Virus record (IMG/VR): IMGVR_UViG_3300002855_000002
Span: 1-52,486 of that record
DNA: 52,486 nt
Reading direction: 5' to 3' (one strand)
DNA from: a virus
Taxonomy: Duplodnaviria > Caudoviricetes
Shown: positions 7,916 to 26,302 of the stretch, piece after piece
How the letters are laid out: every line of letters starts with the position of its first letter
How positions within the stretch are numbered: the stretch's first letter is position 1
Notes under the pieces: model-generated
What the model was told of the DNA's origin: nothing
Database searches by the model: none
The model's input: the letters and a program-made list of their open reading frames with translations, nothing else
Position numbers and translations under genes: made by a program

Positions 7916-8074
7916 ATGATTCGTGTAGGAAAACCGATGGCTGCCGGCACGTTCGCGATATACGTAGCGCCAACAGCACGCGACCGATAACATGCGTTTG
8001 AGTGGGCGAGACAAACGTTTGGTCCGGATGCTTACGTAATGGAGAACGTACAGGCGCGAGACATTACGTGGTAG
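7916..8074 (+). pseudogene. Small ORF with an in-frame TAA at 7988-7990
   Basis: GGAGGTG SD; the frame continues HAFEWARQTFG..., loosely similar to the preceding ORF (AYKRAVELFG). Confidence 0.45.
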
Positions 8075-8103
8075 ATTCATTATGCGAAGGAGAATTGGTA
8101 GGA

Positions 8104-8277
8104 ATGGGCAAAGAGATAGATTTTATCAGAGCAAACAAGGTATTCAAAGATCAATTTAATAAATTCTGTTTGGAACATAATTTAGACACGTTTCAAGCTA
8201 TCAGAATACTTTCTAAAACCATTGAAGAAACTGCACATCAAGCAAGAATCACAAGCATTTTTACCGATGAAGAATAA
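8104..8277 (+). CDS. Cassette gene, hypothetical (57 aa)
   Basis: AAGGAG SD just after the left site; stop abuts the right site. Confidence 0.6.
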   Translation: MGKEIDFIRANKVFKDQFNKFCLEHNLDTFQAIRILSKTIEETAHQARITSIFTDEE

Positions 8278-8337
8278 TGCACAGCACAACGACAAAGCCG
8301 AAGTAGATTCATAAAGTGAAGAAGGGGTGGCGTTATT

Positions 8338-8619
8338 ATGGAGCGTGAATGCCCATGCTGCGGTAAAAGTTACTTCGCGTATGAAGAGGCTGTCAACCGT
8401 GGAATAGGAATTATCTGTCCAGATTGTTTTTGGGAACAGAACAAAGCTAAAGACCTCATAAATGAAAAAATTGAGGGAATGGAAGGGAACAAATTTGTAA
8501 ATTGTCTTCTATGCGAGGGCGCAGGTGTTCTTCATGAGCTTGACGGAGAAGAGTTTGACTGTCCTGTATGTGAAGGCGAGGGTGGAGATTTCGAGAATTA
8601 CCGCCAGTTGGAAAGCTGA
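8338..8619 (+). CDS. Cassette gene: CxxC protein with a DnaJ-type CxxCxGxG zinc finger
   Basis: CPCC, CPDC, CLLCEGAG, CPVCEGEG; the 3' 141 nt recur at 25891-26031. Confidence 0.7.
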   Translation: MERECPCCGKSYFAYEEAVNRGIGIICPDCFWEQNKAKDLINEKIEGMEGNKFVNCLLCEGAGVLHELDGEEFDCPVCEGEGGDFENYRQLES

Positions 8620-8748
8620 ACAGTACAACGAAAATACGTAATACGAATATGTACTACTTGACTATATTTGAGCGATTATTGAACACTTTTTGAACACTTG
8701 TATGTGTTAGTTTAGAAGTAAGCTACTTTACGAAGGAGGTCGGTCACA

Positions 8749-9519
8749 CTGTCGAAAGCTAATGCGCACTCTAAACGTTGTAATCTCCGCCATGTCTGTA
8801 CTGCCGCGGATACACCCGCTTGCAACCGGCTTTGCTCCGCGTTCATCGGAATCCACAGCGTAACAGGCGAAGGCGGTCGAGTGGCGTCTGCGAACATTCC
8901 GCACGAATATCGGCACGTTACGCTCGCATCATCGCCAGCAGCCGAAAGTCAGCCGGACATATACGCGCACTTGACGGAATACGTAAAGACGTTCGTCCGG
9001 CAATTTCTCGACGACAGTCCGCCTATTAAATCGCTATATCTATATTCGAAAGAACCTGGCACCGGAAAGACGACGACGGCTGCCGCGACCGCCAACGAAT
9101 ATATCAACGTTCATTATATCGGATCGGTTCGACGCAATAGGCAAGCGGCAGAGCGCCCGGTATATTTCCTCGACGTTAACGAGTGGCAGACGGACTATAG
9201 CGCGTTCAACCGGCCGCGCGTCCCGGAATCGACCGCAGCTCCGGCAGCCGAACGATATTACCGCGCTATGTCAGCCGCGTCATCGGCACCGTTCGTAGTG
9301 TTCGACGATATAGGCGTGCGGGAGGCGAGCGAGCCGTTCCGTGCCGATCTGCATTCCGTAATCAATGCGCGGGTGGCGAACGGGTTGTCTTCGGTGTATA
9401 CGTCGAATATTCCGATGGCGGAAATGGCGACGCTGTTCGACCGGAGGATTGCGGACCGGTTCCGTGAGCAGACGATTGAGTATACGTTCAAAGGCGCGAG
9501 CAAACGTGGCGTACGATAA
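8749..9519 (+). CDS. DnaC/DnaI-like helicase loader ATPase, probable CTG start
   Basis: Walker A PGTGKTT, Walker B VVFDDIG, YTSN, RIADR; in-frame Cys-rich N-terminus from CTG 8749, 8 nt after AAGGAGGT. Confidence 0.85.
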   Translation: MSKANAHSKRCNLRHVCTAADTPACNRLCSAFIGIHSVTGEGGRVASANIPHEYRHVTLASSPAAESQPDIYAHLTEYVKTFVRQFLDDSPPIKSLYLYSKEPGTGKTTTAAATANEYINVHYIGSVRRNRQAAERPVYFLDVNEWQTDYSAFNRPRVPESTAAPAAERYYRAMSAASSAPFVVFDDIGVREASEPFRADLHSVINARVANGLSSVYTSNIPMAEMATLFDRRIADRFREQTIEYTFKGASKRGVR

Positions 9520-9942
9520 TTTACGTAAAACTGTGAAATGACGAGAAAACGGGAGATCGTATCTCAATCGTGACCAAACGAGGGGCTTTCGTGTGAATAC
9601 GATAGGATACGATATGACTAGCGAATTGTAATTATATGTAAATCAGAATACGATATGACACGTTATGAACCGATTTGACAACCGAATAATTGACGAGCGA
9701 TTTCGTCATAATCGTCAAATATGGCGTTTTACAGAAGTAGTACCCGTCTTATACAATCATCGTAAATCTACGAGAACGCGCGAAATAAAGAGATCGCGAA
9801 TACTACGGGAAAACGTATTTTCAAAGCAGCATTATAAATCCGATGTGCTACGGGTATTTAGTAACTGCTCTATACAGGCATTTACGACCATTGCTCGGTA
9901 TCGGATTACTGAATATCATTAATACAACGAGGAGGCGAACGC

Positions 9943-11301
9943 ATGAGTTACGTTGAATCGCTACTATCACGGATCATTGACGATAATAACGTTAAGCAAC
10001 TGGACAAGCTCGGACTTGACCGCGACTTCTTTCCGGCAGGCGTCGAACGAGATGCGTACGAATTTATCCGTAAATATACGAACGAACACGGCCGCGCACC
10101 GAGTTATGCCGCAGTCGTGACGGAAGTGCCAGACTTTACGTATATTCCGGACGTTACGGATTCATACGATTATATGGCGCGACGAATCAAGGAAACGTGG
10201 GCGCAAGAGGAAACGCAGCGAATACTCAATAGCCGAGAACATGCGGAAAAGTACGCAGAAGTCGGGTATGGTATCACATTCGAAGAGTACGTGCAATACT
10301 TGAATACGCGGCTTAACGATGTTAAAATGAGAACATACGTTCGCAAAATAATAGGAACGGATGTCGCAACGGCCAGTGACGTATTCCTGGTGGAGTACGA
10401 ACGAAGGAAATCGGGCGAATCGTTCAAAATATGGAAGTCCGCGTTTCGCACCGTTAATGATGCGATAGGTGGCGGATATTTCAGCGGTAATATGTATACG
10501 TGGTTTGCGCGATCTGGTCGCGGTAAATCTATTGTAACGTTAGTCGAAGCGATAGAAGCGGCAATGGCGGGCGCGGTCGTCATCATATGGGCGATGGAAA
10601 TGACGCTGTACGAATGCCTATCTCGTATCTTTACGTTTATATCTGCGCGGGCTGGCGTAATGGTTGCGAATATTGACGGAATGGAAATTGACGCAGGCTT
10701 CGATAACCGCGCGATGCTTGCCGGAAAATTGCCGGAACAAATAGCTGGCGAAATGACCGAGTTTATCCGTACGATCAACGAACACATTTCCGGACGTATT
10801 ATCGTTCGTGCGGTCGATGACTCGACGTTCGTTAACCGAAGTGTATCAGCATTAGAGTCCGAAATTAACGAAGCTGGCGCGGATGTCGTCTTAATCGATC
10901 CGATTTACTATATGGATTACGAGGCGAATACGTCGAAAACAGCAGGCGGTGACGTTGCGGCTACGAGTAAAGCGCTGCGACGACTTGCCGGTAAAACACA
11001 AACGGTAATTCACGTAATAACGCAGGCGGACGAGGACGAGAAGGATAAGACGACGGAAACACGCGAATTAAAACCGCCAGCACGTTCCGAAGTGAAGAAA
11101 ACGAAAGCGGTACTCGAAGATGCGGTCGCACTATTCGCGTTTGATTCCGTAAAGGAGGAAGGTCGCGGTAAAATAGCGCTAAGAAAAGGTCGCAGCGGAG
11201 GCGAGGATACAACTGTCGAAGTCGTATACCTGCCGAATTACGGGATCGTACGTGAGCCAGTAGCGGAAGATATAGCGGCACAATTCGTTGGGAATTTTTA
11301 A
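9943..11301 (+). CDS. DnaB-like replicative helicase
   Basis: ARSGRGKS Walker A, AMEM, VLIDPIY, ITQ, KGR. Confidence 0.9.
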   Translation: MSYVESLLSRIIDDNNVKQLDKLGLDRDFFPAGVERDAYEFIRKYTNEHGRAPSYAAVVTEVPDFTYIPDVTDSYDYMARRIKETWAQEETQRILNSREHAEKYAEVGYGITFEEYVQYLNTRLNDVKMRTYVRKIIGTDVATASDVFLVEYERRKSGESFKIWKSAFRTVNDAIGGGYFSGNMYTWFARSGRGKSIVTLVEAIEAAMAGAVVIIWAMEMTLYECLSRIFTFISARAGVMVANIDGMEIDAGFDNRAMLAGKLPEQIAGEMTEFIRTINEHISGRIIVRAVDDSTFVNRSVSALESEINEAGADVVLIDPIYYMDYEANTSKTAGGDVAATSKALRRLAGKTQTVIHVITQADEDEKDKTTETRELKPPARSEVKKTKAVLEDAVALFAFDSVKEEGRGKIALRKGRSGGEDTTVEVVYLPNYGIVREPVAEDIAAQFVGNF

Positions 11302-11379
11302 TTCCACTATTTACAAACGAACCGAACCGTTGTATCATAAAATTTGCACCAAAAAATGATTCATAAGGTGGTTCGTTAA

Positions 11380-11733
11380 ATGGGTGAGAGCAAACTAACT
11401 AATGTAATTAAATCCTTTACAGAAAAAGAGAATAATACAACGAGTATCTTAGATAAGCAAGTACGTTTCTCTATTTCGCTATCTAATTTACAAAGTAAGA
11501 AATTAGACGTGTTAGTTGACATAATAGGATTAAGCAAGCAGGAGTTTATTGCTAAAGTCCTTGATGCCGCTATGATCGATTTGGAGGGTGAGCTTAATTT
11601 GATAGACTCCACTTCAATCGATACATTCGGACATAAACAGTACCACTATAAAACTAAGTACGTTAGGGAAATTTTAGCGAAGTTAGGCATCACAGAGGAC
11701 GAATGGTACGATATGCGTTCTAAAAATATGTAA
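11380..11733 (+). CDS. AT-rich moron-like hypothetical protein, possibly DNA-binding
   Basis: Composition shift; inserted between helicase and primase; TTTACA...TATCAT promoter-like sequence upstream. Confidence 0.6.
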   Translation: MGESKLTNVIKSFTEKENNTTSILDKQVRFSISLSNLQSKKLDVLVDIIGLSKQEFIAKVLDAAMIDLEGELNLIDSTSIDTFGHKQYHYKTKYVREILAKLGITEDEWYDMRSKNM

Positions 11734-11747
11734 GGCGGTGATGCACG

Positions 11748-12674
11748 ATGATTGACGTACGCACCGAACTCGAAGCGTTTCACTGGACGAACGCGACGTG
11801 GACAAGCGGTAAGTTAATCGCAGCAAGTCCGTTAAGGTACGAGCAACATCCGTCATTTGCGGTAATGTTAGATCACGGAGGTTGGCGGGATTGGGGCGCA
11901 GATGATCCGTATTGGCAAAGCGGAAACTTTACGAAGCTACTCGCATTCCTCCGTAACGAGACATACGAAGAAACCGCGGAGTACCTATCAGCAAAATACG
12001 GTGACGGTTCAATATTAACGTATGACGACGAAGGCCGCCCGATATTCCGACCGCCCGACCTTCTGCAACCACGAATCAAGCCGCGACGCATTCCGCAGTA
12101 CATACTAGACAATTACCGCTATCGTTCCGACTATCTCGGACGACGCGGAATCAGCGAAGATATTCAGCGGTTAATGGCGATAGGTTACGATATGGATTCG
12201 AAGGCCGTTACAATTCCGTGGTTCAACTCGGACGGATCGCTCGGCAACGTCATGTACCGGAAAACGCGTGGCAAGACGTTTTGGTATCGGAAGGACAGCC
12301 GACCAATTGGCGAAATGCTATACGGCATTCATCTATCGTACAAGCACCGGCTGAAATCTGCGGCAATCGTGGAGGCGCCTATCGACGGTCTGACGCTTAT
12401 GTCGAATGGGGTTTACGGAATAGCGACGGGCGGAACAGCGGTAACGGATGCGAAAATTGCGCTAATACTGCGGTCGCCTATCGAGGAGTTAACGATATGG
12501 CGGGACCAGGACGGGGCCGGCCGCACGTGGCAAAGACGGCTAGTTACGGCACTCCGCGGCAAGATTCGTTTGAAAATTGCGAAAATTCCGAAGGGGTACA
12601 AGGACGTTAACGAAATGGTGTGCGCGGGCGTTCGAGTAGATGACGTAAATATTCGTAGTGTTACCATTTTTTGA
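11748..12674 (+). CDS. DNA primase (TOPRIM)
   Basis: YLGRRGIS, IVEAPID, DQDGAG, KDVNE. Confidence 0.88.
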   Translation: MIDVRTELEAFHWTNATWTSGKLIAASPLRYEQHPSFAVMLDHGGWRDWGADDPYWQSGNFTKLLAFLRNETYEETAEYLSAKYGDGSILTYDDEGRPIFRPPDLLQPRIKPRRIPQYILDNYRYRSDYLGRRGISEDIQRLMAIGYDMDSKAVTIPWFNSDGSLGNVMYRKTRGKTFWYRKDSRPIGEMLYGIHLSYKHRLKSAAIVEAPIDGLTLMSNGVYGIATGGTAVTDAKIALILRSPIEELTIWRDQDGAGRTWQRRLVTALRGKIRLKIAKIPKGYKDVNEMVCAGVRVDDVNIRSVTIF

Positions 12675-12746
12675 CGTAGATAAAAACGGTTACATTGCTT
12701 TATAATGGTAATACGCAAATGTGCGAATTTTACCGCAGTCGAGCGC

Positions 12747-12965
12747 TCATTCATCGAGTGCCCACTCGTAAAGCATCCGTTCCTTGACGTCTAGCGCTTC
12801 CGCGATTGGTATAGCGATTGATAGCGGCATTTCCTTAAGCCGATTAGTCGCATACTTCGAGATAGTTTTTTCGTCAATACCAGAATGCTCCGCAAGCTGC
12901 CGTTGTTTCCAGCCGCGAGCTGCGAGTAAGTCCGGAATGAGGCATCGACGCGGGATTAATCGCAT
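12747..12965 (-). CDS. Cro/CI-type HTH regulator
   Basis: WKQRQLAEHSGIDEKTISKY...IAEALDV; GGAGG SD. Confidence 0.85.
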   Translation of the reverse strand: MRLIPRRCLIPDLLAARGWKQRQLAEHSGIDEKTISKYATNRLKEMPLSIAIPIAEALDVKERMLYEWALDE

Positions 12966-13005
12966 CGAGTTCCTCCAAAAAATAAATATTAAATAATTTT
13001 TGAAA

Positions 13006-13043
13006 AAGTGTGCCGAATTGAAATGGCATCCGACTATATAAGT
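13006..13043 (+). promoter_or_regulatory. Phage-specific bipartite motif, copy 2 (upstream of the sigma-like gene)
   Basis: AAGTGTGCCGA-N14-CGACTATATAAGT. Confidence 0.75.
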
Positions 13044-13062
13044 GAAAAGGAGATGATATTGG

Positions 13063-13641
13063 TTGACAACACAATATCAAGTAGTTTATGAAAAGCACGT
13101 CAAAAGTGAAGTAACCACATCGGAGTTCTACAGAATACTCTCCCCACTAAAGGATTCGCATTTACGAAAATCCAAGCAATCATACTTTTTGGACGAGCAT
13201 ACCGCGTTAGAAATTTTTGACGAAGTGTTTATGAGTATTACAGATTGTATCCTAGATATCGAGCGGTGGTTGAATCGGGCACTACACCGACGAAGAATCG
13301 ATGCGCACCGACAACGTAAAGCCCGAAGTAAGTACGAACAGATTAAAGAGTACATACCCGAAACGACGCCAATCGTTAACGAGGTAGAGTGCTCAGTAAT
13401 TCAAAAAGAAGAAGCCGATCACCGCCAAGTAATCGACTTCATCCTACGGACCGCCAAGCCCGATGCAACAACGACGGCAATCGTTGAAGCATATTTAATC
13501 GCGCCACCCAGCGCTACTCGCAAGGAAATCGCAAGATCACTTGGACTTCATCACGAGATTGTTAAACGTAAACTACTTAGTCTTTCTCGCCATTACGACG
13601 CCAATCGTTTTGGAGAGCATTACGACTATTTAGCTGTTTAA
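13063..13641 (+). CDS. Sigma-70/ECF-like phage transcription factor
   Basis: WLNRALHRRRIDAHR region-2-like; TRKEIARSLGL..VKRKL region-4 HTH. Confidence 0.65.
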   Translation: MTTQYQVVYEKHVKSEVTTSEFYRILSPLKDSHLRKSKQSYFLDEHTALEIFDEVFMSITDCILDIERWLNRALHRRRIDAHRQRKARSKYEQIKEYIPETTPIVNEVECSVIQKEEADHRQVIDFILRTAKPDATTTAIVEAYLIAPPSATRKEIARSLGLHHEIVKRKLLSLSRHYDANRFGEHYDYLAV

Positions 13642-13831
13642 CATATAGTAAGTATAACATAATTGTCAACTTAGTTTCAGTGTCGGAAAATACACGCTTA
13701 GGCATTACGTATAGGTTCCGAAGGTAATTCGCGGATAAGCGAATGTTAGCTACTTTTGATATTATAACGTTCGCTTTCCGGATTTGTCAACTGTTTTTTA
13801 CAATTATTATCATTTCCGGAGGTGTTTTAAC

Positions 13832-14005
13832 GTGTCTATCGATACTTATATACGTAGTATATCCGCAAAGGTTCCGAAATATACACGAAATTCTAACGAA
13901 ATCTTACGCAACGAGTTTTTATACGAAGGTGGGCGTCCATCTTACGTCGATCCGGCCGACTATTCGTACGGGCAACGCACGGTAAAAGGGGTGCGTCTCG
14001 GATGA
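13832..14005 (+). CDS. Small hypothetical protein
   Basis: GGAGGTG SD then GTG; ATGA overlap with the next gene. Confidence 0.55.
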   Translation: MSIDTYIRSISAKVPKYTRNSNEILRNEFLYEGGRPSYVDPADYSYGQRTVKGVRLG

Positions 14006-14547
14006 ATAACCGGAACATCGATCACACGCAAGTTATCGTAAGTAATCACGCGGTCGACCGTGCCGTCGAACGGCTGGCGTTAAAACGTGACGATGCCCGT
14101 CGCATTATTCGTACGAATCTCCGCAGCGCTGAATATATTTCCGATGTAACGGACGTCGACGGTAAGTTTGGTCGAATGTTTGCGCACGATGGCGTGGCGT
14201 ACGTACTAGACGCGCGTTACGATCAAGTCCTCACGTTGTATCGATATGAGCGCAAGCATATTACGTTAGGCGAGCGGTTCGTTAAAATGGCACGCGCTGA
14301 ACTCCGTAAATGGCAGCGGAAGGAATCCGTTATCGAACGTGACATTGCGATTAAGAAGGCGAAACTGGACGTTGAAGCAGCGGAATGTCGCTATAAAATG
14401 GCGATCACACCGAGTAAGGCCGTTATACGAGTGAATACGGAAAGGTTACGCATGATTGACGATGAAAAGGCGACGTTAGACGCGGAGCTGGCGGAAGTCG
14501 TCCGTATGAAATCGGCAGTAGCGAAGGGACTTACGGCTTTTGTTTAA
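14002..14547 (+). CDS. Hypothetical protein (SNHAVDR N-terminal domain plus coiled coil)
   Basis: Long ORF with phage codon usage. Confidence 0.7.
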   Translation: MNNRNIDHTQVIVSNHAVDRAVERLALKRDDARRIIRTNLRSAEYISDVTDVDGKFGRMFAHDGVAYVLDARYDQVLTLYRYERKHITLGERFVKMARAELRKWQRKESVIERDIAIKKAKLDVEAAECRYKMAITPSKAVIRVNTERLRMIDDEKATLDAELAEVVRMKSAVAKGLTAFV

Positions 14548-14559
14548 CGAATATATGAC

Positions 14560-14960
14560 GATAAGATAGCGAAGTTAAAACGTTATCTACGGCCACGATA
14601 AAGACTCGAAAGAGTCTTACGTCGGCAAGGCGGCAGTAGTTTCTACGGCTATGGCGGATAGTTTACGAACAACTCCGCGATTGCTGCCGTCTTGCGGACG
14701 TAAGAGCCGGCCGAATAAGGGCGGAAACATCCGCTAGCACACCGAAAGGCTGCGAGCTGAAACGTAAGACGGGTAATGTACGGGTCGACACGTGCAATGT
14801 CCGCAAACTTACGTCCGATTGAGCCGAAGGGCTGACCGCGAAGGCGACGCGGTATCTGCACCGGGCAGACATTAAACAAGAACCGGAAACCCTATATCGC
14901 TGCGTGAAAATAGGTAGAGGCACGCCCGTCCCGCTCGGAGATTGTCCGAGTCCTCTACCG
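14560..14960 (+). ncRNA. Candidate structured RNA / SSB leader (about 400 nt)
   Basis: At least nine stems, GAAA and UACG tetraloops, and a 26-bp helix whose imperfect positions are mostly G:U on the + strand. Confidence 0.55.
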
Positions 14961-14989
14961 AAAATAAACCGAAAAGGATGCGTGATCGA

Positions 14990-15790
14990 ATGAGTCAATT
15001 TACACGTAGAGGTTCAGCGGCAGTAGAGGCGGCAACGGCCGAAAAGGAAAACGGAACAAGCTCGCACGTACCATTCCCGTCCGGCACAACGTTGAAAGTC
15101 CGAATCAAGTCGACGGAAGATTCAGCGGAATACTATGCGCATGGCATTTACGGCAAGGTGAATACCTTTGTCCCTAAGACGCCAGCCGTCCGCAACGCCC
15201 GCGGCTTTATCGAATCGAATCCGTCCGTATGGGATCGCGCGGCCGACCTATTGTATGCGGATGCCAAAGCGTTAAAAGACGCAGGCGACGAAAAGGGCGC
15301 GGAGAAAGTCCGTAACGAGGCGTATCTGCTGAAATCGAAAGCTCGCTATCTCGTAGGCTTCGGCAATCTCGAAACTGGCGAAGATGGATTCGTCGACTTA
15401 ACGCCAAAGCAAGCGAAAGGTGTATTCGCGGCTATTACGAAGTATGCGAAACGTCTCGATAAGTTAGCGTTCGAGCTATCGAAAACCGGCTCGTCAACGG
15501 ATACCGTCGTTACATTATCGCCAATCATCGATATGGACGAGGATTTGACGGATGCCGAGCGTGCGAATTTCGAAAAGGTGGGCGAGAAGCCGTTTGATTT
15601 CGCGGCATTCGAAGGCTTTCTATTCGAAGCGGACGAGGCGGAGCAGACGAAGAATCTCGTAATTGCTGGCTTCGACATTTCGCGATTAGGCTTATCGATT
15701 GGAGCTGCGGCAGGCACTTCGGTCCCGGATGACAACGTTAAGCCGATTGACGACGACGCGGCTCCGGTCGATCCTACGAAAATATTCTAA
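14990..15790 (+). CDS. Probable single-stranded DNA-binding protein (gp32-like)
   Basis: Position in the replication module, SKTGSSTDTVVTL motif, acidic tail ending in F. Confidence 0.6.
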   Translation: MSQFTRRGSAAVEAATAEKENGTSSHVPFPSGTTLKVRIKSTEDSAEYYAHGIYGKVNTFVPKTPAVRNARGFIESNPSVWDRAADLLYADAKALKDAGDEKGAEKVRNEAYLLKSKARYLVGFGNLETGEDGFVDLTPKQAKGVFAAITKYAKRLDKLAFELSKTGSSTDTVVTLSPIIDMDEDLTDAERANFEKVGEKPFDFAAFEGFLFEADEAEQTKNLVIAGFDISRLGLSIGAAAGTSVPDDNVKPIDDDAAPVDPTKIF

Positions 15791-15804
15791 CGGAGGGCGC
15801 ACGT

Positions 15805-15975: not shown

Positions 15976-15995
15976 GACGAAAAGGTGGCGGTTTA

Positions 15996-16103: not shown

Positions 16104-16134
16104 GCGTTATTATTCGGATAAGGAGGCGATTTTT

Positions 16135-16763: not shown

Positions 16764-16779
16764 AGGTGGCGTTGTGTAA

Positions 16780-18189: not shown

Positions 18190-20357
18190 TGCAGATTACC
18201 GTTAATCTAAAGCGGAAGCCGACCGGCAGCGCAGCGGAATCAGCGGAAAAACGGAAGGCGACGGGGAAATCGGAAACAGCGGACGAGGCGTGGCAACGAA
18301 TATTGGCGATGAATAACAGCGACACCGACCGCGAACGGTTATTAGCGGTTAAGTCGGCAATGGCGGAGGGCCTTATAGGCAGAGCGCCCTCCTCGGCCGG
18401 CAAACGTTTCAGTAAGGCGGAAGCGCTCCGGATGTATGGCGAATTGGCCGAGCGGAACAAGGCGGCAACCTTGCGCGCGATGGTCGAGAATACTCCGGGA
18501 CACTATTCGTTAGTACGTAATATGACGGAGTTACAACGTATGGCAGCGTTGATAACTTCCGCTGATATTATCGCAATTGACTGTGAAACGTTCGGTACGG
18601 CAGAAAATCCGGACGCAGCGCTCGATCCGTGGACAGGCGAAATGGCGGGATTCTCGGTATCTACGCGGTCACATTCGTTCTACGTTCCGTTGCAGCACGT
18701 GGAAAGAACCGCTCTAACCGCGGACACCGTGTTTTCCGTACTGAAGCCGGTATTAGAACGTATAGCGTCCGTCATGCACAACGCACCGTTCGACTGCAAG
18801 TGGTTCTACGTAAAATATGGCATCGACTTAATTACGAATTTACACGCAGATACACGGTTAATGGCGATGTCGCTAGACGAAAACCGTAATCACCGTCTTA
18901 AAGATTTAGTAACGGACTGGCTCGGACTGCCTGGCGATAACTTCGATCAACTATTCGGTAAGACACCGTTCAACGAAGTACCGCTCGACGTTGCGCTCGC
19001 ATATGCCGCGGCAGATACGGAGAAAACGTTAAAACTCTACGATTGGATAATGGCACAATACGGTCGTCGCGATGACTTGCAGACAATCGAGCGGCTAGTA
19101 TTCGGTATAGAAATGCCGGTTATGCGGACGTTCATTCGTTCGGATATACGAGGAATACCGTTCGATACCGAAATGGCTGCCGAACTTGACGCGAAGTTTG
19201 CGACCGAGGAAGCGGAGTTGCAGACGCAGATTTACGAAATGTTGGGTGAAGAAATCAACCTTAATTCTCCGTCACAACTTGCGCGGAAACTTTACAGTGA
19301 CTTACGTTTAACGGACTACGACAAAGGTTCGACAGGCGTGCGGTCATTGAAACGTATTAAACGCGAGCATCCGGTAATTGCGCTAATTCTATCGTACAGA
19401 GAAGTCGGAAAGCTGCGCCAGGCGTTCACGTCAAAACTACCGAAATCCGTTAAGTACGACGGTAAAATTCATCCGTGGCATAATTCGTGGGGCGCTGCGA
19501 CCGGAAGGTTTACGTGCCGCGATCCGAATACGCAGCAAATTCCGGCTAAACGTCCGGAAATACGGCACTTGTTCATGGCGAGCGGAACCGACCGTATTCT
19601 CGTATCAATTGACTATTCGCAAATTGAACTTCGTGTACTAGCAGATAGAGCCGGTGAAACGGTGTTAATCGAAGCGTTCGAGCAAGGCCGCGACATCCAC
19701 TCGACGACTGCCGCGCTTATATCGAAAGGACAATTTACGTACGAAGAAATCGAACGTTATAAAGATACGGAAGGTCACGCAGCCGCAAAGTTCCGTAAGC
19801 AGGCGAAGATTGTTAACTTCGGAATCGTATACGGAATGGGTGCTGGCAAACTAGCGGATACGCTCGAAATTACGAAGAAAGCCGCGCAGGAAATTATCGA
19901 TAACTATTTCGCTGGGTATCCGATGATTAAACGCTATATGGACGAGCAGCAGGCGGCTGTAATGAAGAACGGATATGTAACGGGATTGCTCGGCCGTAAA
20001 CGTAGGCTGCACGAACAAGTCCGCGCAAAGGAACGTTGGAAAGTGTTTTCTGCGCAACGGATGGCCGGTAACTTTCCGATACAGGAAGGCGCTGGAACGA
20101 TATTAAAGAAAGCTATCGTTGACCTAGCGGACGTACTACCGTTATACGATTCGTACATTCTTCTACAGGTTCACGATGAGCTAGTTATAGACTGTCCGAG
20201 AACTATATCGGAAGTAGCGCTCGAACACATTCGTCGCACGATGGAACAGGCGGTTTCTTTACGGTGTCCAGTCCGTTGTGACGTCGAGATTAATCCGGAA
20301 CGCTGGCTTAAAAAGGTCGACGTTGACGCGTGGTTTAACGAAGATTACGACGAATAA
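18189..20357 (+). CDS. Phage family A DNA polymerase (3'-5' exonuclease plus polymerase)
   Basis: DCET, HNAPFD, YAAAD exonuclease motifs; DYSQIELR, KIVNFGIVYG and VHDE polymerase motifs. Confidence 0.95.
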   Translation: MQITVNLKRKPTGSAAESAEKRKATGKSETADEAWQRILAMNNSDTDRERLLAVKSAMAEGLIGRAPSSAGKRFSKAEALRMYGELAERNKAATLRAMVENTPGHYSLVRNMTELQRMAALITSADIIAIDCETFGTAENPDAALDPWTGEMAGFSVSTRSHSFYVPLQHVERTALTADTVFSVLKPVLERIASVMHNAPFDCKWFYVKYGIDLITNLHADTRLMAMSLDENRNHRLKDLVTDWLGLPGDNFDQLFGKTPFNEVPLDVALAYAAADTEKTLKLYDWIMAQYGRRDDLQTIERLVFGIEMPVMRTFIRSDIRGIPFDTEMAAELDAKFATEEAELQTQIYEMLGEEINLNSPSQLARKLYSDLRLTDYDKGSTGVRSLKRIKREHPVIALILSYREVGKLRQAFTSKLPKSVKYDGKIHPWHNSWGAATGRFTCRDPNTQQIPAKRPEIRHLFMASGTDRILVSIDYSQIELRVLADRAGETVLIEAFEQGRDIHSTTAALISKGQFTYEEIERYKDTEGHAAAKFRKQAKIVNFGIVYGMGAGKLADTLEITKKAAQEIIDNYFAGYPMIKRYMDEQQAAVMKNGYVTGLLGRKRRLHEQVRAKERWKVFSAQRMAGNFPIQEGAGTILKKAIVDLADVLPLYDSYILLQVHDELVIDCPRTISEVALEHIRRTMEQAVSLRCPVRCDVEINPERWLKKVDVDAWFNEDYDE

Positions 20358-20370
20358 AGGAGCGGATGTT

Positions 20371-20634
20371 ATGAAAATTACGGAAACTCGCGATATTGGG
20401 AACGATTATGACGAGTATTACGGTAAAGGTTCAATTGGGGTTAAGTTAGAGTTTGCGGACGGCACTACGGCAAGCCTCAGTATTATGGCTGGGGAGCCGG
20501 AGGATGCGGTATTCTTCCGTGATCTTGACGGAGCCTACAACATTTCAACGCTGATTAAACTAGCGTACGAAGCCGGCAAACGTGGCGAAGAAATGACGTA
20601 CGAGTTCATAGACGAATCGGAAGATAACGAATAG
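20371..20634 (+). CDS. Hypothetical acidic protein
   Basis: AAAGGAG SD then ATG at 20371. Confidence 0.65.
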   Translation: MKITETRDIGNDYDEYYGKGSIGVKLEFADGTTASLSIMAGEPEDAVFFRDLDGAYNISTLIKLAYEAGKRGEEMTYEFIDESEDNE

Positions 20635-20645
20635 GAGGCGGATTA

Positions 20646-20882
20646 ATGGACGTTCATTTTAGAATAGGTGATCGAGGATACATCGTTCGTCTTTCCGGGA
20701 AAAATATTGCGTTTGTTGAGAATTTTTCTTGTACTATCTACTGGATAGAGGATGATGAATCAATTGTCGTGAAGGACGATGATGGTATCGTATATAAACT
20801 ACGAGAACAGGAGTATTTTATTGCACAACACGATAAACTCACCGGCACACAGATCATTGTTACAAAAAAGGAGGCGGTATAA
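20646..20882 (+). CDS. Hypothetical protein
   Basis: AGGAGG SD then ATG. Confidence 0.65.
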   Translation: MDVHFRIGDRGYIVRLSGKNIAFVENFSCTIYWIEDDESIVVKDDDGIVYKLREQEYFIAQHDKLTGTQIIVTKKEAV

Positions 20883-21941
20883 ATCGGACATTTCCAACGA
20901 ATCAGATACGAAGAACCAACGGAAACACAACGAACATTAGTCGAAGAAATCCGCGACAACTTCCGCAGCTTCCTCGATAATTACCATAGTTTACCGGAAG
21001 TATACGACGATGCGCTCGACGCCTGGCTTCACCGTATTTATGCGGACGTACAATCGGACAAGTCGCGCAAAGTTTGGCCGCCTCGTCATATGCCGTATTT
21101 CTCGCCATCGTCCGCGAACTCCGATCCGCGCGAGTTATACGAAAAAGTCCGGGGCGCCAAACGTGAACGTACAGGGCAACCTCCGCATCAAGGACGATGG
21201 ACGCGAATCGGAACTGCGGTGGGCGATACGATACAGCGCGACATTCTCTTTGCGGAGAAGCATACGAAAAATCCTCGTTTCAGATTCGAACGTAACGAAC
21301 GCGACGAGCCAATGTTCGAGGACTTCGCGAAGGTCAGCCGCGAGATAACCGTCGGCAATACGAAGTTTGCGCTATACGGCACATGCGATGGAATCATGAC
21401 GTACGTGACCGAAGATGGCGAGCAAATCCGCGTTGGACTCGAAGTTAAATCGAAACAAGGAACGTATGCGAAAACGTCCGAATTTAGCCAACGCAATGGT
21501 CCCGAAGAAGATCACGCAAAACAGACGATATGTTATTCGGTTATGTACGATAAGCCGGACGCTCACATCGACTATTACGTCATCCTCTACGTCAACGCGT
21601 CGAAAAAGGCGTGGGAAATGACTCCGGAAGAATACGAAAAGAATCCGGACATTGCCGTACATGTCGTCGAGATTACGAACGATATGCGGGCGGACTTGAT
21701 GCGGCATTTCGCGGGAATCGTAGAGGCTGCCGCTAATGGAACGCCACCACCGCTCGACTTATCGAAGTGGACGTTTAACGGATACAAGGCAGCATGTGCA
21801 GCCGGATTAACGGACGACGAGATGGCGGCACTCGAACGACAAGTCGACGCGGCAAAACGTAGCGGAATGAAGGACTGGCAGAAGCAGGCGTATGTATCGG
21901 CATTGGCGGAGATTAAACAATTACGTGGGGAGGCGGTTTAG
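20883..21941 (+). CDS. Cas4/RecB-like PD-(D/E)XK exonuclease, probable ATC start
   Basis: FSPSS, GTCDG, LEVKSK, HAKQTICY; the frame is open from ATC 20883 (8 nt after AAGGAGG), 69 codons before the first ATG. Confidence 0.8.
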   Translation: MGHFQRIRYEEPTETQRTLVEEIRDNFRSFLDNYHSLPEVYDDALDAWLHRIYADVQSDKSRKVWPPRHMPYFSPSSANSDPRELYEKVRGAKRERTGQPPHQGRWTRIGTAVGDTIQRDILFAEKHTKNPRFRFERNERDEPMFEDFAKVSREITVGNTKFALYGTCDGIMTYVTEDGEQIRVGLEVKSKQGTYAKTSEFSQRNGPEEDHAKQTICYSVMYDKPDAHIDYYVILYVNASKKAWEMTPEEYEKNPDIAVHVVEITNDMRADLMRHFAGIVEAAANGTPPPLDLSKWTFNGYKAACAAGLTDDEMAALERQVDAAKRSGMKDWQKQAYVSALAEIKQLRGEAV

Positions 21942-22103
21942 ATGTCGGAACCTAACGAAGATATCGAAATCGACGAAGAGTATCCGGAAGATGACGACGA
22001 CTGCGAACACGATTGGCGCGACTACTATGCTTGCGAAAATGGATGCTGTTCGTGTTGCGGTTGTAGTTGCGGATGGGAGGACGACGACGATTACGAAGTT
22101 TGA
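21942..22103 (+). CDS. Acidic Cys-rich 53-aa peptide (not in the ORF track)
   Basis: GGAGG SD then ATG; MSEPNEDIEIDEEYPEDDDDCEHDWRDYYACENGCCSCCGCSCGWEDDDDYEV. Confidence 0.65.
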   Translation: MSEPNEDIEIDEEYPEDDDDCEHDWRDYYACENGCCSCCGCSCGWEDDDDYEV

Positions 22104-22175
22104 CCGGTTACTTAACGGTATCCTAACGAAATTACTACGTACACGTTACGTATCTTGTTGAGGAGGCGGTGAACG

Positions 22176-22400
22176 TTGATTAGAAAAGTATGGTCCGGTA
22201 TTTTATACGGGTTGGTTTTGTTCGTATGTAGCTTCATATTACTTTTAGTCTTTATCTTATCGTACTTGTTCGTCACAACTGGCGGAGTACTGATGTTAAC
22301 GGTTTTTGTAATGTTGTTCATTGGCGTAGGTGTGGGCGTTTATACCGAAACTAAAGGCGGTGATGATCGTAACGACAACGAAAACACTACGCAAGACTAA
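22176..22400 (+). CDS. Small two-TM membrane protein
   Basis: GGAGG SD then TTG; hydrophobic. Confidence 0.6.
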   Translation: MIRKVWSGILYGLVLFVCSFILLLVFILSYLFVTTGGVLMLTVFVMLFIGVGVGVYTETKGGDDRNDNENTTQD

Positions 22401-22914
22401 CGCAAAGCCGCCAGCCGACCGCTATCTCATCTACGATATATCGTTAACCTCGCCCGGCTTCGCGGCAATTGACGTCAACAACCGTAAGCCGACGCTCGTT
22501 GCGGTTAGCCACGTTAAGACCGACGCGAGCCAGCCGGATGGGCAGCGGTTCGCTATCGTCGAGGCGTTCGCTATTACTACCGCAAGTAAACACGGAAATA
22601 GCAACGCTATTGTAGTGCGCGAGGACTATAAGAACGCGGCAAGCAAGCGGCAGGGGCAAACGATATATGGCGCATGGGCAGCGGTCGATTCCGGACTCCA
22701 ACGGTGCGGGCTTCGTGTAAATGCCGAAATCAACGCAAGCACCGTTAAGAAAACGATAGGCGGGCACGGCAAGGCGGACAAAGCGGAAGTGGCGGCAGGC
22801 GTGCGGAGAATACTCGGACTGTCCGATGACTTCATATTTGCGACGGATGACGAAAGCGATGCGGTAGCCATTGGCTTAACGTACCTTATCGAAAAGGGGT
22901 TGATCGACGTATGA
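22363..22914 (+). CDS. RuvC-like Holliday junction resolvase (start uncertain)
   Basis: YDISLTSPG, VRED, VKKTIGGHGKADK, DDESDAVAIG. Confidence 0.8.
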   Translation: MIVTTTKTLRKTNAKPPADRYLIYDISLTSPGFAAIDVNNRKPTLVAVSHVKTDASQPDGQRFAIVEAFAITTASKHGNSNAIVVREDYKNAASKRQGQTIYGAWAAVDSGLQRCGLRVNAEINASTVKKTIGGHGKADKAEVAAGVRRILGLSDDFIFATDDESDAVAIGLTYLIEKGLIDV

Positions 22915-23228
22915 GGATTCCGGAAAGCGTAAAGGTAGGCGGAAAAGTCTATACGGTCAAGTGTGTATCGCATCCGGTAGTCGTAGGCGGCCGCGAGTGT
23001 TACGGAAGCATCAACTATAACGAGCAGATTATATGGATTTGCACCGATGGTAACTCCGAACAGCAACAGTTCAATACGTTCCTACACGAAGTAATCCACG
23101 CCATTTCGTACGAGCGCATGATCGATTGGGGCGATAAGGACGAAGAATACACGGAATCGCTGGCGAAGGCACTGCACGCTCTATTCGTTGACAATGTGAT
23201 AACGTTCGGCAAGGAGGCGACCGTATGA
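22911..23228 (+). CDS. Small HExxH metallopeptidase-like protein
   Basis: FLHEVIHA motif and a downstream E. Confidence 0.65.
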   Translation: MRIPESVKVGGKVYTVKCVSHPVVVGGRECYGSINYNEQIIWICTDGNSEQQQFNTFLHEVIHAISYERMIDWGDKDEEYTESLAKALHALFVDNVITFGKEATV

Positions 23229-23407
23229 AGCCGGTATTCACGCGGCAGGAGCGGTACAAATTCGCCCTCCTCCGAGAACGTGACGAATTGACGTATCAAA
23301 TCGGATTATATAGCGGATGGATCGCGCAAAAGCAGCGACGTATCGCCCATATTGACGAGCAGATATCGGAAATGGAACGGAAGGCAGGCGACGAGGCGGA
23401 ATGTTAA
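23225..23407 (+). CDS. Small coiled-coil protein
   Basis: SD; overlapping start and stop codons. Confidence 0.55.
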   Translation: MKPVFTRQERYKFALLRERDELTYQIGLYSGWIAQKQRRIAHIDEQISEMERKAGDEAEC

Positions 23408-23766
23408 TCGCATACTATTCGCTAACCGGCAACGTCCGTCGATTCGTACACCGGCTCGGTCGGCCATCTTCGTTATATACGATAAAAGCCTTCGGCATCT
23501 TAACGGAGCCTTACGTTCTAATCACGCCTACGACCGGATACGGACAAGTGCCGGACACCGTGGCGGAGTTTGTTCGGAACAATGCCGACTTACTCCGCGG
23601 TGTCGTGGCGAGCGGCAACCGGAATTGGGGTGTTAACTTCGCGGCTGCTGGCGGAAAGATAGCGGATGCGTATGCCGTACCGCTGATCCATACGTTCGAA
23701 TTATCGGGTACGGACGAAGATGTACGGATTGTACGTGAATATATCGAAGGAGTGACGCTTAATTGA
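23401..23766 (+). CDS. nrdI: Class Ib RNR flavodoxin NrdI
   Basis: YSLTGNVRRF, TPTTGYG, SGNRNWG, FELSGT. Confidence 0.93.
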   Translation: MLIAYYSLTGNVRRFVHRLGRPSSLYTIKAFGILTEPYVLITPTTGYGQVPDTVAEFVRNNADLLRGVVASGNRNWGVNFAAAGGKIADAYAVPLIHTFELSGTDEDVRIVREYIEGVTLN

Positions 23767-25850
23767 CGAAACACATCGAACTAAACAACGAAATAATGAC
23801 GCGCGGTGCCGACGGGTTTTACCAACTCGAAAAGGATCGCGAAGCCGTGGCTGAATTTATGCGAGAAGTCGTCGCAAACAGCCGCAAGTTTCCGTCCATC
23901 ATCGACCGTTACCGCTGGCTTATTGATAACGGATATTACGACGATATGTTGACGTTATATGGCGCGGAGACGGTCGAGCGAATCGTCAACGTATGTAATT
24001 CGTACGGCTTCCGCTTCGCTTCGTATATGGCTGCGTCGAAATTTTACAAGGACTACGCGCTGAAAACGGACGACAAAACGGAGTACCTCGAATCGTATGC
24101 GGAACATGTCGCACAAGTGGCGTTATATCTCGGACAAGGTGACGGGACGGCTGCGGAAACATTCGCCCGCTCAATGATGGAGCAACGGTTACAGCCGGCA
24201 ACGCCTACGTTTATGAACGCGGGTCGTGCGAAACGTGGCGAAATGGTATCGTGTTTCTTACTCGAGATGGACGATTCGCTTAATTCGATAAACTACGTGC
24301 TTGGTACGTGTATGCAGTTATCGAAAATAGGCGGAGGTGTGGCGGTTAACTTATCGAAACTACGCGGCCGTGGCGCTCCGATTAAAGGCGTAGAAGGTGC
24401 GGCAAAAGGCGTTATGCCCGTTATGAAGCTGATGGAGGACGCGTTCTCGTATGCCGATCAAATGGGACAACGCAAAGGTTCCGGAGCCGCGTACTACAAC
24501 ATTTTCGGCTGGGACGTAATCGAATTTCTCGATAGCAAAAAGATCAACGCAGACGAAAAGGCCCGCATTAAAACGTTGTCTATCGGACTAATCGTACCGG
24601 ACAAGTTTTACGAATTGGCTCGCGCTAATCAATCGCTTTACGTATTCGAACCATTCTCCGTATACAAAGCGTACGGCAAGCATCTTGACGATATGGATAT
24701 GGCGATTATGTACGACGTTTTGCTCGGAAATCCAGCGGTTAATAAGCGACGTATTATGTCCGCACGCGAAATGTTAACGAAGATTGCGACGACGCAACTC
24801 GAATCGGGCTATCCGTACATTTGTAACGTAGACGTGGCGAATAAGGCGCACGCAAACGGGGCGCTCGGCAATATTAAGATGTCTAATCTTTGTACGGAAA
24901 TTTTTCAGCTACAGGAAACTTCGACGATTACGGATTATGGCGAACCGGACGTGATCCGTCGCGACATTTCGTGCAACCTCGCCAGCCTTAACATTGTCAA
25001 CGTAATGGAATCCAGCAAGCTGCGCGAATCCGTACACGTCGGAATGGACGCACTAACGGTCGTATCCGATAGGTCAGCGGTTGCCAATGCGCCAGGCGTA
25101 CGTAAGGCAAACGAGGAACTACACTCCGTCGGACTTGGCGTAATGAACCTTAACGGATTCCTTGCGAAAAATAAGATCGCATACGAATCGGACGAGGCGC
25201 GCGACTTCTGCCGGACGTTCTTCGCGGCAATGAATTATTATTCGTTGGAACGTTCGATGCAAATCGCCCGCGACCGTGGCGTTACGTATAAAGGCTTCGA
25301 AAAGTCTGACTATGCGAACGGAATGTATTTCAAGCGCTATACTTCGGAGTTTTTCCGACCACAAACGGATAGGGTTCGCCAGTTGTTCGAAGGTATCGAA
25401 TTGCCTACGCCTGTCGAGTGGTTCGCGCTAATGAATGACGTCGCTAAATACGGACTATACCACGCGTACCGCCTAGCGATTGCGCCTACGCAGAGCATAT
25501 CGTATATCCAAAACGCCACGTCGTCCGTAATGCCAGTCGTCGAGCATATCGAAACGCGTACGTACGCTAACTCTACGACGTATTATCCGATGCCGTATCT
25601 ATCTCCGGACAATTTCTTCTTTTACAAGTCCGCGTATAATATCGATCAATTTAAGCTTATCGATTTAATTGCGGAGATACAGAGCCATATCGACCAGGGA
25701 ATAAGCACGGTATTACACGTCAATTCCGATGTATCGACCGCGACGCTCGGTAAGCTGTACGTATATGCGCAGCACCGCGGGCTAAAGAGCCTCTATTATA
25801 CACGTACGAAGCGTTTATCGGTCGAAGAGTGTACGAGCTGTGCCGTATAA
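23763..25850 (+). CDS. nrdE: Class Ib ribonucleotide reductase alpha subunit
   Basis: QPATPTF, VSCFLL, SNLCTEI, SCNLAS, APTQSISY, SLYY, C-terminal CxxC. Confidence 0.96.
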   Translation: MTKHIELNNEIMTRGADGFYQLEKDREAVAEFMREVVANSRKFPSIIDRYRWLIDNGYYDDMLTLYGAETVERIVNVCNSYGFRFASYMAASKFYKDYALKTDDKTEYLESYAEHVAQVALYLGQGDGTAAETFARSMMEQRLQPATPTFMNAGRAKRGEMVSCFLLEMDDSLNSINYVLGTCMQLSKIGGGVAVNLSKLRGRGAPIKGVEGAAKGVMPVMKLMEDAFSYADQMGQRKGSGAAYYNIFGWDVIEFLDSKKINADEKARIKTLSIGLIVPDKFYELARANQSLYVFEPFSVYKAYGKHLDDMDMAIMYDVLLGNPAVNKRRIMSAREMLTKIATTQLESGYPYICNVDVANKAHANGALGNIKMSNLCTEIFQLQETSTITDYGEPDVIRRDISCNLASLNIVNVMESSKLRESVHVGMDALTVVSDRSAVANAPGVRKANEELHSVGLGVMNLNGFLAKNKIAYESDEARDFCRTFFAAMNYYSLERSMQIARDRGVTYKGFEKSDYANGMYFKRYTSEFFRPQTDRVRQLFEGIELPTPVEWFALMNDVAKYGLYHAYRLAIAPTQSISYIQNATSSVMPVVEHIETRTYANSTTYYPMPYLSPDNFFFYKSAYNIDQFKLIDLIAEIQSHIDQGISTVLHVNSDVSTATLGKLYVYAQHRGLKSLYYTRTKRLSVEECTSCAV

Positions 25851-25890
25851 CGAGGTAGATTCATTTTGTTCAGTAAAGGATGATGTGTGA

Positions 25891-26031
25891 ATGGAAGGGA
25901 ACAAATTTGTAAATTGTCTCCTATGTGAAGGTGCAGGGGTTCTATACGAGCATGACGGAGAAGAATTTGACTGCCCTGCATGTGAAGGTGAGGGTGGAGA
26001 TTTTGAGAATTACCACCAGTCGGAAAGTTGA
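25891..26031 (+). CDS. Cassette gene: stand-alone CxxCxGxG zinc-finger peptide (46 aa)
   Basis: AAAGGA SD then ATG; 124/141 nt identical to 8479-8619. Confidence 0.7.
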   Translation: MEGNKFVNCLLCEGAGVLYEHDGEEFDCPACEGEGGDFENYHQSES

Positions 26032-26061
26032 TTCAAACTGTGAAGGAAGGAGATTAGCTCA

Positions 26062-26247
26062 TTGAGGAATTTTCGATGTAAAGAATGTGACGAAACGAAC
26101 ACCTTATACGATTGGAACACTAATGAGCGAGTGTTCGGGAATCTTACCTTACATGAAGTGAAGGACGACATTGAGTTTGTAGAATTAAGAAAAATGATCT
26201 TATTTACGTGTCCAACTTGTAAAAAACATCAGTGGCTGATGAAATAG
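26062..26247 (+). CDS. Cassette gene: zinc-ribbon protein
   Basis: AAGGAG SD then TTG; CKEC...CPTC. Confidence 0.65.
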   Translation: MRNFRCKECDETNTLYDWNTNERVFGNLTLHEVKDDIEFVELRKMILFTCPTCKKHQWLMK

Positions 26248-26302
26248 ATGAAGTCATTTGATGCACAGTACAACGAAACTACCACGCAAAGGAGCGGATG
26301 AC

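Follow-up and report, generated by a model that had tools for sequence, protein, structure and literature searches.

The window analyzed here, a 52,486-bp record that represents a complete virus genome, carries four small gene units at two unlinked loci, called locus A and locus B. The units are bounded by conserved sequences, a left module (L) and a right module (R). These promoterless units look like an undescribed kind of swappable phage gene cassette. Cassettes of this kind share a defined anatomy, vary among related phages by presence, absence, and replacement at the same boundaries, include one unit duplicated to an unlinked locus, and occur on unrelated phage backbones. We consider it highly probable that they are real, non-random, and mobile in the evolutionary sense. 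For the mechanism, we favor shuffling of modular cassettes by short-homology recombination at conserved, unstructured, dual-purpose boundary modules, to which we give about an even chance; this explanation is ranked ahead of site-specific capture, a transposon, and a pure expression signal. The evidence was drawn from five contigs (the window, G001, G002, L092, and L110), which together hold 17 L and about 15 R sites, some of them related by descent. Position matrices were built from 17 L and 14 R sites.

The core of L, GTAGATTCA, was found in three exact copies in the window (8071, 8303, and 25855), all on the plus strand, and a variant, GTTGATTCA, was found at 26027. With up to one mismatch allowed, GTAGATTCA occurred 19 times, compared with 10.1 ± 2.9 times in 100 shuffled sequences, none of which reached 19. 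The R sequence CAGYACAACGA was present in three exact copies (8282, 8621, and 26266), again all on the plus strand, with one single-mismatch copy on the minus strand. In the matrix scan of the window, scores of at least 20 bits for L and at least 17 bits for R were obtained only at the cassettes and only on the coding strand. These shuffle statistics, the finding of 17 L and about 15 R sites exclusively on the coding strand of five independently assembled contigs, and their steady placement relative to stop codons, Shine-Dalgarno (SD) sites, and start codons argue against chance similarity or an assembly artefact. The short contigs L061 and L112 do break inside or beside a duplicated cassette, as assemblies do at repeats, but this extremely improbable reading is effectively refuted.

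Locus A holds two units, both on the plus strand. The L of the first unit, c1 (8071 to 8088; 22.4 bits), is the leftmost L of the array and reads GTAGATTCA-tta-TGCGAA, followed by the SD site GGAG. Its cargo is open reading frame (ORF) P0004 (8104 to 8277; 57 amino acids [aa]), for which no family was found in the profile scan, and the GC content of this cassette is 0.34. The R of c1 with its spacer (8278 to 8302; 17.5 bits) consists of TGCACAGCACAACGA directly after the stop codon TAA and a 10-nt spacer, CAAAGCCGAA, that abuts the next L. The L of c2 (8303 to 8320; 25.4 bits), at the internal junction, reads GTAGATTCA-taa-AGTGAA. The cargo of c2, P0001 (8338 to 8619; 93 aa), joins two cassette-type zinc-ribbon ORFs in frame; its N-terminal half is homologous to cassette 1 of L110, and its C-terminal half is a paralogue of the c3 cargo at locus B. 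A decayed L-like stretch, GACCTCATAAATGAA, forms the coding linker within this fusion. The array ends on the right with the R of c2 (8617 to 8631; 19.6 bits), TGAACAGTACAACGA, whose TGA is the stop codon of the cargo. Upstream of locus A, a small ORF (7916 to 8074) has an in-frame TAA at 7988 to 7990; it stops on a TAG (8072 to 8074) inside the first L (GTAGATTCA), and the G002 orthologue likewise stops on the TAG in its first L. The last R of locus A is separated from the SD site of the loader-region gene by about 100 nt (8632 to 8730), an AT-rich sequence in which TGAACAC is repeated; in the G002 counterpart, the R spacer directly abuts the SD site. This stretch may be a cassette remnant.

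Locus B stacks two further plus-strand units between nrdE (23763 to 25850) and nrdF (26303 to 27261), both of which are also on the plus strand. The L of c3 (25855 to 25872; 24.3 bits) begins 4 nt past the nrdE stop codon, reads GTAGATTCA-ttt-TGTTCA, and is the leftmost L of this locus. The c3 cargo, P0002 (25891 to 26031), is a 46-aa protein with two CxxCxGxG motifs, and the half of P0001 that is paralogous to it shows a weak likeness to Anti-TRAP and the DnaJ zinc finger (Anti-TRAP E = 0.004). The c3 unit lacks a separate R; its ORF closes with the codons AGT TGA, which overlap the L of c4, and the two units are joined at the shared GTTGA. The L of c4 (26027 to 26044; 26.8 bits) reads GTTGATTCA-aac-TGTGAA, followed by GGAAGGAG, and the 21 nt at this L also stand before unrelated cargo in G002 and L110. 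The c4 cargo, P0003 (26062 to 26247), is a 61-aa zinc-ribbon-like protein (CxxC...CxxC) with a TTG start codon. The R of c4 (26262 to 26276; 19.1 bits), TGCACAGTACAACGA, forms the right end of the locus, and the nrdF leader on its 3' side is common to the window and G001. The TTG start of nrdF at 26303 was assigned from the SD site AAAGGAG and the relatives.

Across the five contigs, L can be written as GTWGATTCA, a variable triplet (N3), and TGTKMA running into an SD site, with GTWGATTCA exact in 15 of the 17 sites. The start codon follows the first G of L at 29 to 40 nt (33 to 36 nt in the window, where each unit has its own SD site). R begins at the cargo stop codon, which is directly followed by TGMACAGYACRAC and an A-rich spacer of 0 to 12 nt that usually ends in CGAA, and then comes either the next L or the SD site of the resident gene. 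L and R sites are confined to the coding strand, and the co-oriented units, stacked in arrays of two to four, sit between a resident stop codon and the next resident SD site. Within arrays, R, spacer, and L form a conserved unstructured junction of about 45 to 55 nt, and the internal junctions are near-identical across three backbones (an alignment of window positions 8272 to 8340 with six junctions of G002, L092, and L110, alignment A1). L is a mosaic of its third base, N3, and SD segment, and all four combinations of A or T with aac or tat were seen. The cargo identified so far comprises zinc-ribbon mini-proteins, one protein with a PAPS-reductase domain, one that resembles methyltransferases, and ORFans. 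When 13 cargo proteins were scanned against Pfam, the matches were weak ones to zinc ribbons, one PAPS-reductase domain, and one weak methyltransferase match.

Much of the preliminary description of this DNA agreed with these results. The strings quoted in it were all present at their positions, and discrete one-gene cassettes at unlinked loci, as it had proposed, were found as four units at the two loci of the window. It had also described AT-rich mini-genes with no evident promoter and with an SD site right after the left site. The inserts have a GC content of 0.34 to 0.44, compared with 0.485 for the window, with one small ORF per unit. A sigma-70 consensus scan and a terminator scan detected no promoter-like or terminator-like site on L or R, and around both loci such sites were no commoner than in shuffled sequences (promoter-like sites, 8 versus 4.8 ± 1.9 and 7 versus 7.2 ± 3.1). 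The cassettes are read from the operon's own transcript. The predicted absence of attC-like hairpins held as well: DNA folds of six window junctions showed no hairpin (z scores of -0.2 to +1.1), RNAalifold gave 0 consensus pairs for seven internal junctions from three backbones, and an Rfam scan detected the three tRNAs only, with no family at the junctions. Two other identities for the modules were rejected. L as a promoter for a phage sigma-like protein or for leaderless mRNA was ruled out because the distance from L to the start codon varies from 29 to 40 nt and clear SD sites are present, and the CI-type operators, at 7060 to 7125, are palindromes unrelated to L and R.

Two frames cross the internal junctions. 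One of them (...Q-Y-D-x-K-N-E-V-D-S-N-C...) is open through seven of seven, with both alignment gaps 6 nt long. The other contains a mini-ORF (M-H/N-S-T-T...) that begins at TAATG or TAGTG overlapping the cargo stop codon, and in its frame, ATG-CAC-AGY-ACR, both variable bases of the R core fall at third codon positions. As read from the sequence, the open frame or the mini-ORF could reflect translational coupling. These features are also consistent with the reading of L and R as nothing but RNA-level or translational signals under selection, such as a regulator or RNase site or stop-restart coupling. The genes would then move by ordinary recombination in the flanking conserved genes, without involvement of L and R. 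The form of L as a fixed 5' leader that ends in an SD site at a limited distance from the start codon and the frequent start of R as TAATG or TAGTG at the cargo stop codon point in the same direction. However, such a reading leaves unexplained why backbones with no genes in common carry nearly the same modules around unrelated cargo, why a duplicated G002 unit ends exactly at L and R between unrelated flanks, and why single units lie in naive gaps. So specific a signal would also call for a common trans factor, and no such factor was identified. We therefore regard a pure expression signal as unlikely.

The same loci were next compared in relatives. A query with the C terminus of NrdE returned 45 viral loci, of which 35 have an nrdE-nrdF gap of at most 82 nt and 10 have extra DNA. 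The short gaps, such as TAACGAAAGGAG, contain neither the L nor the R motif, and among the 45 loci both motifs occur at the gap only in L004 (record G001), whose NrdF N terminus is 94% identical to that of the window. The left part of the G001 gap reads TGACGAA|GTAGCTTTA-taa-TGTAGC-SD. It is followed by a 189-aa methyltransferase-like ORF, then by TAA-TACACAGCACAACGA, and then by the same nrdF leader as in the window. In BLASTN, homology between the window and G001 extends to window position 25880, including L, and resumes at 26256, including R, and the 376-nt and 575-nt segments between the homology blocks are unrelated. A different gene between the same nrdE-nrdF boundaries, which the preliminary description had named as support for its proposal, is thus present. 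In G001, locus A has no cassette, and an HNH-AP2 gene lies in the dUTPase gap, between the dUTPase gene and thyX; neither half-site was found in the empty locus A of G001 and L063 to L065 or in the G001 dUTPase gap.

The 65-kb genome G002, which has terminal repeats, shows the converse distribution. Its nrdE-nrdF gap is empty, and an array orthologous to locus A of the window consists of a 46-nt stub and then three or four units. In addition, a single unit is found between the dUTPase gene and the small gene ahead of thyX. The G002 stretches 647 to 1003 and 44715 to 45071, which between them hold this single unit and one member of the array, differ at 18 of 357 positions (95% identity). The similarity runs from GTWGATTCA to CGACGAT, and the flanks are unrelated. 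Because the copies are alike exactly from L to R, this indicates that the unit was copied between unlinked loci. In the matrix scan of four close relatives without cassettes (G3, G4, G5, and G10; about 236 kb), no strong L or R was detected: G4 had no L and one weak R (13.6 bits), G5 had one weak L (13.1 bits), and G3 and G10 had none.

The preliminary description had further proposed that each insert splits an empty target site, and this part was not borne out. The rejoined site, GTAGATTCAGTACAACGA, had no exact match in IMG/VR, no intergenic L-R pair within 60 nt was found in 1.67 Mb of fetched sequence, and neither half of the site was present in the 35 orthologous nrdE-nrdF gaps of at most 82 nt, where empty sites had been expected. 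From these results and those for locus A and the dUTPase gap, we conclude that GTAGATTCA and GYACAACGA are cassette ends and not target halves. On the sequence evidence, L and R travel with the cassette.

The wider distribution was examined with a tandem R-N(5-20)-L pattern in IMG/VR, metagenome contigs, and GTDB species genomes; the latter two collections were scanned for tandem R-L junctions only, and single cassettes fall outside that scan. In IMG/VR, the pattern matched 43 places, two of which were real (G002 and a new 10.6-kb contig, L092). In the metagenome contigs, 4 of 13 places were real, namely, G002 itself, two contigs whose fetched stretches, L111 and L112, match parts of L092 and G002 exactly, and L110, a contig of 6.4 kb that was new. 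The five places in the GTDB species genomes were all chance-like. L092 (GC content, 0.40) and L110 (0.34) each carry a four-cassette array, and in tblastn with the compared window ORFs of at least 50 aa, only P0001 matched L110, at its cassette 1, and none matched L092. A strict R pattern gave one chance-level match in 40 further nrdE-related virus records, and an 18-nt L variant, GATTCAAACTGTGAAGGA, was found in IMG/VR only in G002.

Searches outside these contigs gave little. A BLAST comparison of two complete junctions with 50,697 deposited phage genomes, at E values up to 10, returned chance matches only (E of at least 2), and tblastn of P0001 and the duplicated G002 cargo against the same genomes returned none. 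A collection of 5.8 billion proteins contained one relative of P0001 (82%, 93 aa). Cargo genes also exist without L and R modules, for example, in a Paenibacillus larvae phage. At 93 other viral loci with genes related to two of the cargo genes, no L or R of cassette strength was present; L170, L197, and L221 had one weak match each. In L142, a PAPS-reductase-like gene (1440 to 2240), 89% identical to the L092 cargo, lies in an ordinary gene row, and a degenerate R-like trailer, TAATACGCAGTACGAAG, follows it; the gene and trailer may represent a cassette in decay. The literature covered, from which subscription journals and supplements were excluded, yielded no account of a system of this kind.

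The preliminary description had also noted 15-bp imperfect palindromes on rejoining the ends of each cassette. The arithmetic is right, but the hexamers of L and R show no covariation beyond that of permuted pairs: the observed score for 13 cassettes was 60, compared with a permutation mean of 57.2 (P = 0.10, or 0.19 when the duplicate copy was omitted). This test also bears on a non-autonomous transposon resembling a miniature inverted-repeat transposable element, in which the element would be TGTKMA...TKMACA with terminal inverted repeats of 6 to 8 bp and a transposase encoded elsewhere. The ends do read TG...CA, and ACGAA-like pentamers flank several units on both sides. The TGTKMA/TKMACA inverted repeats are perfect in 4 of the 13 cassettes, with repeats of 6 to 7 bp in units a and d of G002 (TGTTCAA/TTGAACA), unit d of L092 (TGTTTA/TAAACA), and unit c1 of L110 (TGTGCAA/TTGCACA). 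Against this, the two ends do not covary significantly, and there is no target duplication of fixed length or position, as the pentamer offsets vary and are exact at only two of seven leftmost junctions. In this model, GTWGATTCA-N3 and GYACRACGA, which stay constant beside the element, would have to form its target, yet that target is never seen without an insert. Moreover, no transposase was found among the scanned window proteins, and DNA folds revealed no subterminal hairpins of the IS200/IS605 type. Such a transposon is accordingly quite unlikely.

In the favored explanation, short-homology recombination, crossovers inside the L and R modules would account for the exchange, stacking, fusion, and deletion of units, with phage or host recombination functions acting on short homologies. 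The stop codons and the SD site would serve as a translational insulator and restart leader, and we propose that the modules are kept constant because L and R also serve expression. A cassette would only rarely enter a naive gap for the first time, and would do so at ACGAA-type sequences; ACGAA is common just upstream of SD sites in this phage clade. The mosaic structure of L, the excess of differences between the two G002 copies in the first 12 nt of L, which places a crossover just after N3, the c3-c4 join at GTTGA without an R, and the in-frame fusion in c2 are signs of recombination inside the modules.

Several observations weigh against this explanation. Counting arrays and single cassettes, the leftmost L begins with GTAG in 7/7 cases and the internal L with GTTG in 7/10 (P = 0.006), and the triplet aac is found only at internal sites (6/10, versus 0/7 leftmost; P = 0.017), where both P values treat the sites as independent, which they are not fully. 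Such polarity of the arrays is expected of directional site-specific insertion and not of homologous exchange. The stretches of homology are very short: the invariant core has 9 nt and the whole 18 to 30 nt, which is shorter than the promoter-early stem-loop (PeSL) modules of T4-type phages. The entry into naive gaps and the exact left edge at GT in 17/17 sites are unexplained by ordinary recombination, and the near-invariance of GTWGATTCA resembles that of a protein-binding site. The expression role of L and R is itself only inferred, and the data set of five contigs with partly related sites is small.

The polarity and the exact left edge, together with the invariant 9-nt core and the spacer-like N3, instead suit an integron-like, site-specific capture. 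In this process, a phage or host Xer tyrosine recombinase would excise circles and insert them at L-type sites, with the crossover just after N3 of L and without attC hairpins. The differences between the G002 copies point to the same crossover position, as they crowd into the first 12 nt of L (3 of 12 positions, compared with 15 of the other 345; Fisher P = 0.018). The co-oriented, promoterless units are also integron-cassette-like, and candidate enzymes are at hand: one tyrosine integrase each is encoded in the window, G001, and G002, and L092 encodes, 1.3 kb from its array, a tyrosine recombinase of 190 aa that consists of the catalytic domain only. The window enzyme, an Xer-like tyrosine integrase on the plus strand (887 to 1861), adjoins the tRNA-Leu gene (595 to 683) and is a merely conceivable candidate for moving the cassettes; it lies 6 kb and 24 kb from the two cassette loci.

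On the other hand, no empty or primary site was found in the sequences searched. Tyrosine recombinases use inverted binding arms around an overlap of 6 to 8 bp, and L and R have neither a common core nor such arms. The arrays end in R and not in a second half of L, so the integron topology does not fit, and the spacer from R to the next L varies from 0 to 12 nt. On the integron-integrase model TIGR02249, the window integrase scored 46.3 bits and the L092 recombinase 36.5 bits, compared with a cutoff of 265, and the former is best described as Xer-like. No recombinase was confined to cassette-bearing genomes. The cassette-free G003 encodes a related integrase, and no recombinase was seen in the 6.4-kb L110 fragment. 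Site-specific capture is therefore a possibility that we hold only tentatively. The bolder form of this idea is a hairpin-less phage gene-capture platform in which a tyrosine recombinase (an Xer-like integrase, a small catalytic-domain-only recombinase, or host XerCD) would put SD-ORF cassettes directionally at GTWGATTCA-N3. We consider this form doubtful. If true, it would build polar arrays inside essential operons and pass cassettes between unrelated phages, and it would represent an integron analogue that evolved independently in viruses.

Returning to the phages themselves, the L and R modules were found in temperate siphovirus-like phages with Bacillales-type hosts, and the nearest deposited relatives of the window are Bacillus and Paenibacillus phages of distant similarity only. 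The window carries genes for tRNA-Met, tRNA-Met, and tRNA-Leu (394 to 683), followed by the tyrosine integrase, which shows that it is a prophage with a little host flank. Positions 394 to 1861 form the left end of the integrated prophage, and the 3' end of tRNA-Leu is the likely attachment site. The other genes encode a CI-like repressor, a DnaC-like loader, a helicase, a primase, a DNA polymerase, a Cas4-like nuclease, a RuvC-like resolvase, NrdE and NrdF, ThyX, a C5-methylase, a sigma-like protein, and an endonuclease VII-like protein. No gene of any kind was convincingly specific to cassette-bearing genomes. Genes that are present in the window, G001, and G002 and missing from the four cassette-free relatives encode small proteins of unassigned function; the endonuclease VII-like ORF at 2649 to 3659 and the ORF at 4080 to 4541 also match G10.

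Some further differences from the relatives were observed. The window nrdF has a 2-nt insertion near 26655 (26640 to 26670; TTCCGCGCTGGG, versus TTCCGATGGG in G001), which splits its frame into 26258 to 26704 and 26461 to 27261; either the gene is a pseudogene or contains a recoding site, or the break stems from a sequencing error. The nrdE genes of the relatives contain inserts of 0.26 to 0.93 kb that are missing in the window (G001, 24924 to 25855, 26266 to 27116, and 27459 to 27719; G002, 61421 to 62342; relative to window nrdE positions 24466 to 25449). They are candidates for an intron, an intein, or an endonuclease gene. A different kind of insert lies between the helicase and primase genes of the window (11301 to 11732). 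It has a GC content of 0.35, a 117-aa ORF, and a promoter-like site (TTTACA-17-TATCAT), and it lacks L and R; the same gap is empty in G001 and holds another AT-rich gene in G002. Weak L-like and R-like matches at 11355 to 11650 had suggested a fifth window cassette, which was rejected, as this insert is of a different kind with its own promoter-like site.

The gain and exchange of small accessory genes by phages, often for counter-defense or host takeover, is mostly ascribed to unspecific mosaic recombination, and defined cassette systems are known, namely, PeSLs in T4-type phages and integrons in bacteria. The units described here would be a second, anatomically distinct cassette system in temperate phages of Gram-positive hosts, common to unrelated backbones. 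They would provide a concrete, testable route for accessory-gene flow and, in L and R, a sequence tag for mining phage ORFans under exchange, and possibly a compact plug-in leader and trailer for gene expression inside operons.

Integron cassettes, which depend on IntI, attI, and attC, are promoterless, co-oriented, mostly single-ORF units that are stacked and expressed from outside. The phage cassettes share with them the promoterless co-oriented arrays and a first array junction that is unlike the internal ones. In contrast, no IntI-type integrase, attC hairpin, or attI-like primary or empty site was found here, the arrays lie in phage operons at several loci, and nearly every cassette has its own L and R, the exception being c3, which lacks an R. 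The ultra-small mycobacteriophage transposons MPME1 and MPME2 carry one constant ORF between defined 11-bp inverted repeats. They resemble the cassettes in being inserts of a few hundred base pairs, at variable positions among close phage genomes, with short terminal repeats; the cargo here is variable, however, and the inverted repeat at the termini is only weak, without covariation of its two arms. Like morons and free-standing homing endonuclease genes, the cassettes are accessory genes that are present or absent between conserved genes and use the same gaps. Morons bring their own promoter and terminator, as the insert at 11301 to 11732 appears to do; the L/R cassettes have neither, which rules out this identity. 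Identity with homing endonuclease genes was ruled out as well, since the Pfam scan of the 13 cargo proteins detected no endonuclease domain (HNH, GIY-YIG, LAGLIDADG, or similar).

In T4-type phages, PeSL modules extend from an upstream stop codon to a downstream SD site or start codon and flank ORFans (PMC2839356). There, they mediate insertion, deletion, and replacement in plastic regions between close relatives (PMC2839356, Arbiol et al. 2010), and recombination between module copies, possibly via mini-circles, has been proposed (PMC2839356). L and R likewise span the distance from a stop codon to an SD site or start codon, frame small ORFans, and mark the breakpoints of insertions, deletions, and replacements. 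However, they have no sigma-70 promoter and no stem-loop, the two defining components of a PeSL, in which the promoter is a strong early one and the stem-loop acts as terminator or attenuator. They also consist of two distinct halves that are split at the array ends, are found in temperate siphovirus-like phages with Bacillales-type hosts rather than in T4-like myoviruses, and occur on backbones that share no genes. Judged by analogy, the T4-type PeSL cassette is the closest functional counterpart of these units, with a different anatomy; because the sigma-70 promoter and the stem-loop are missing, the L/R system is not a PeSL.

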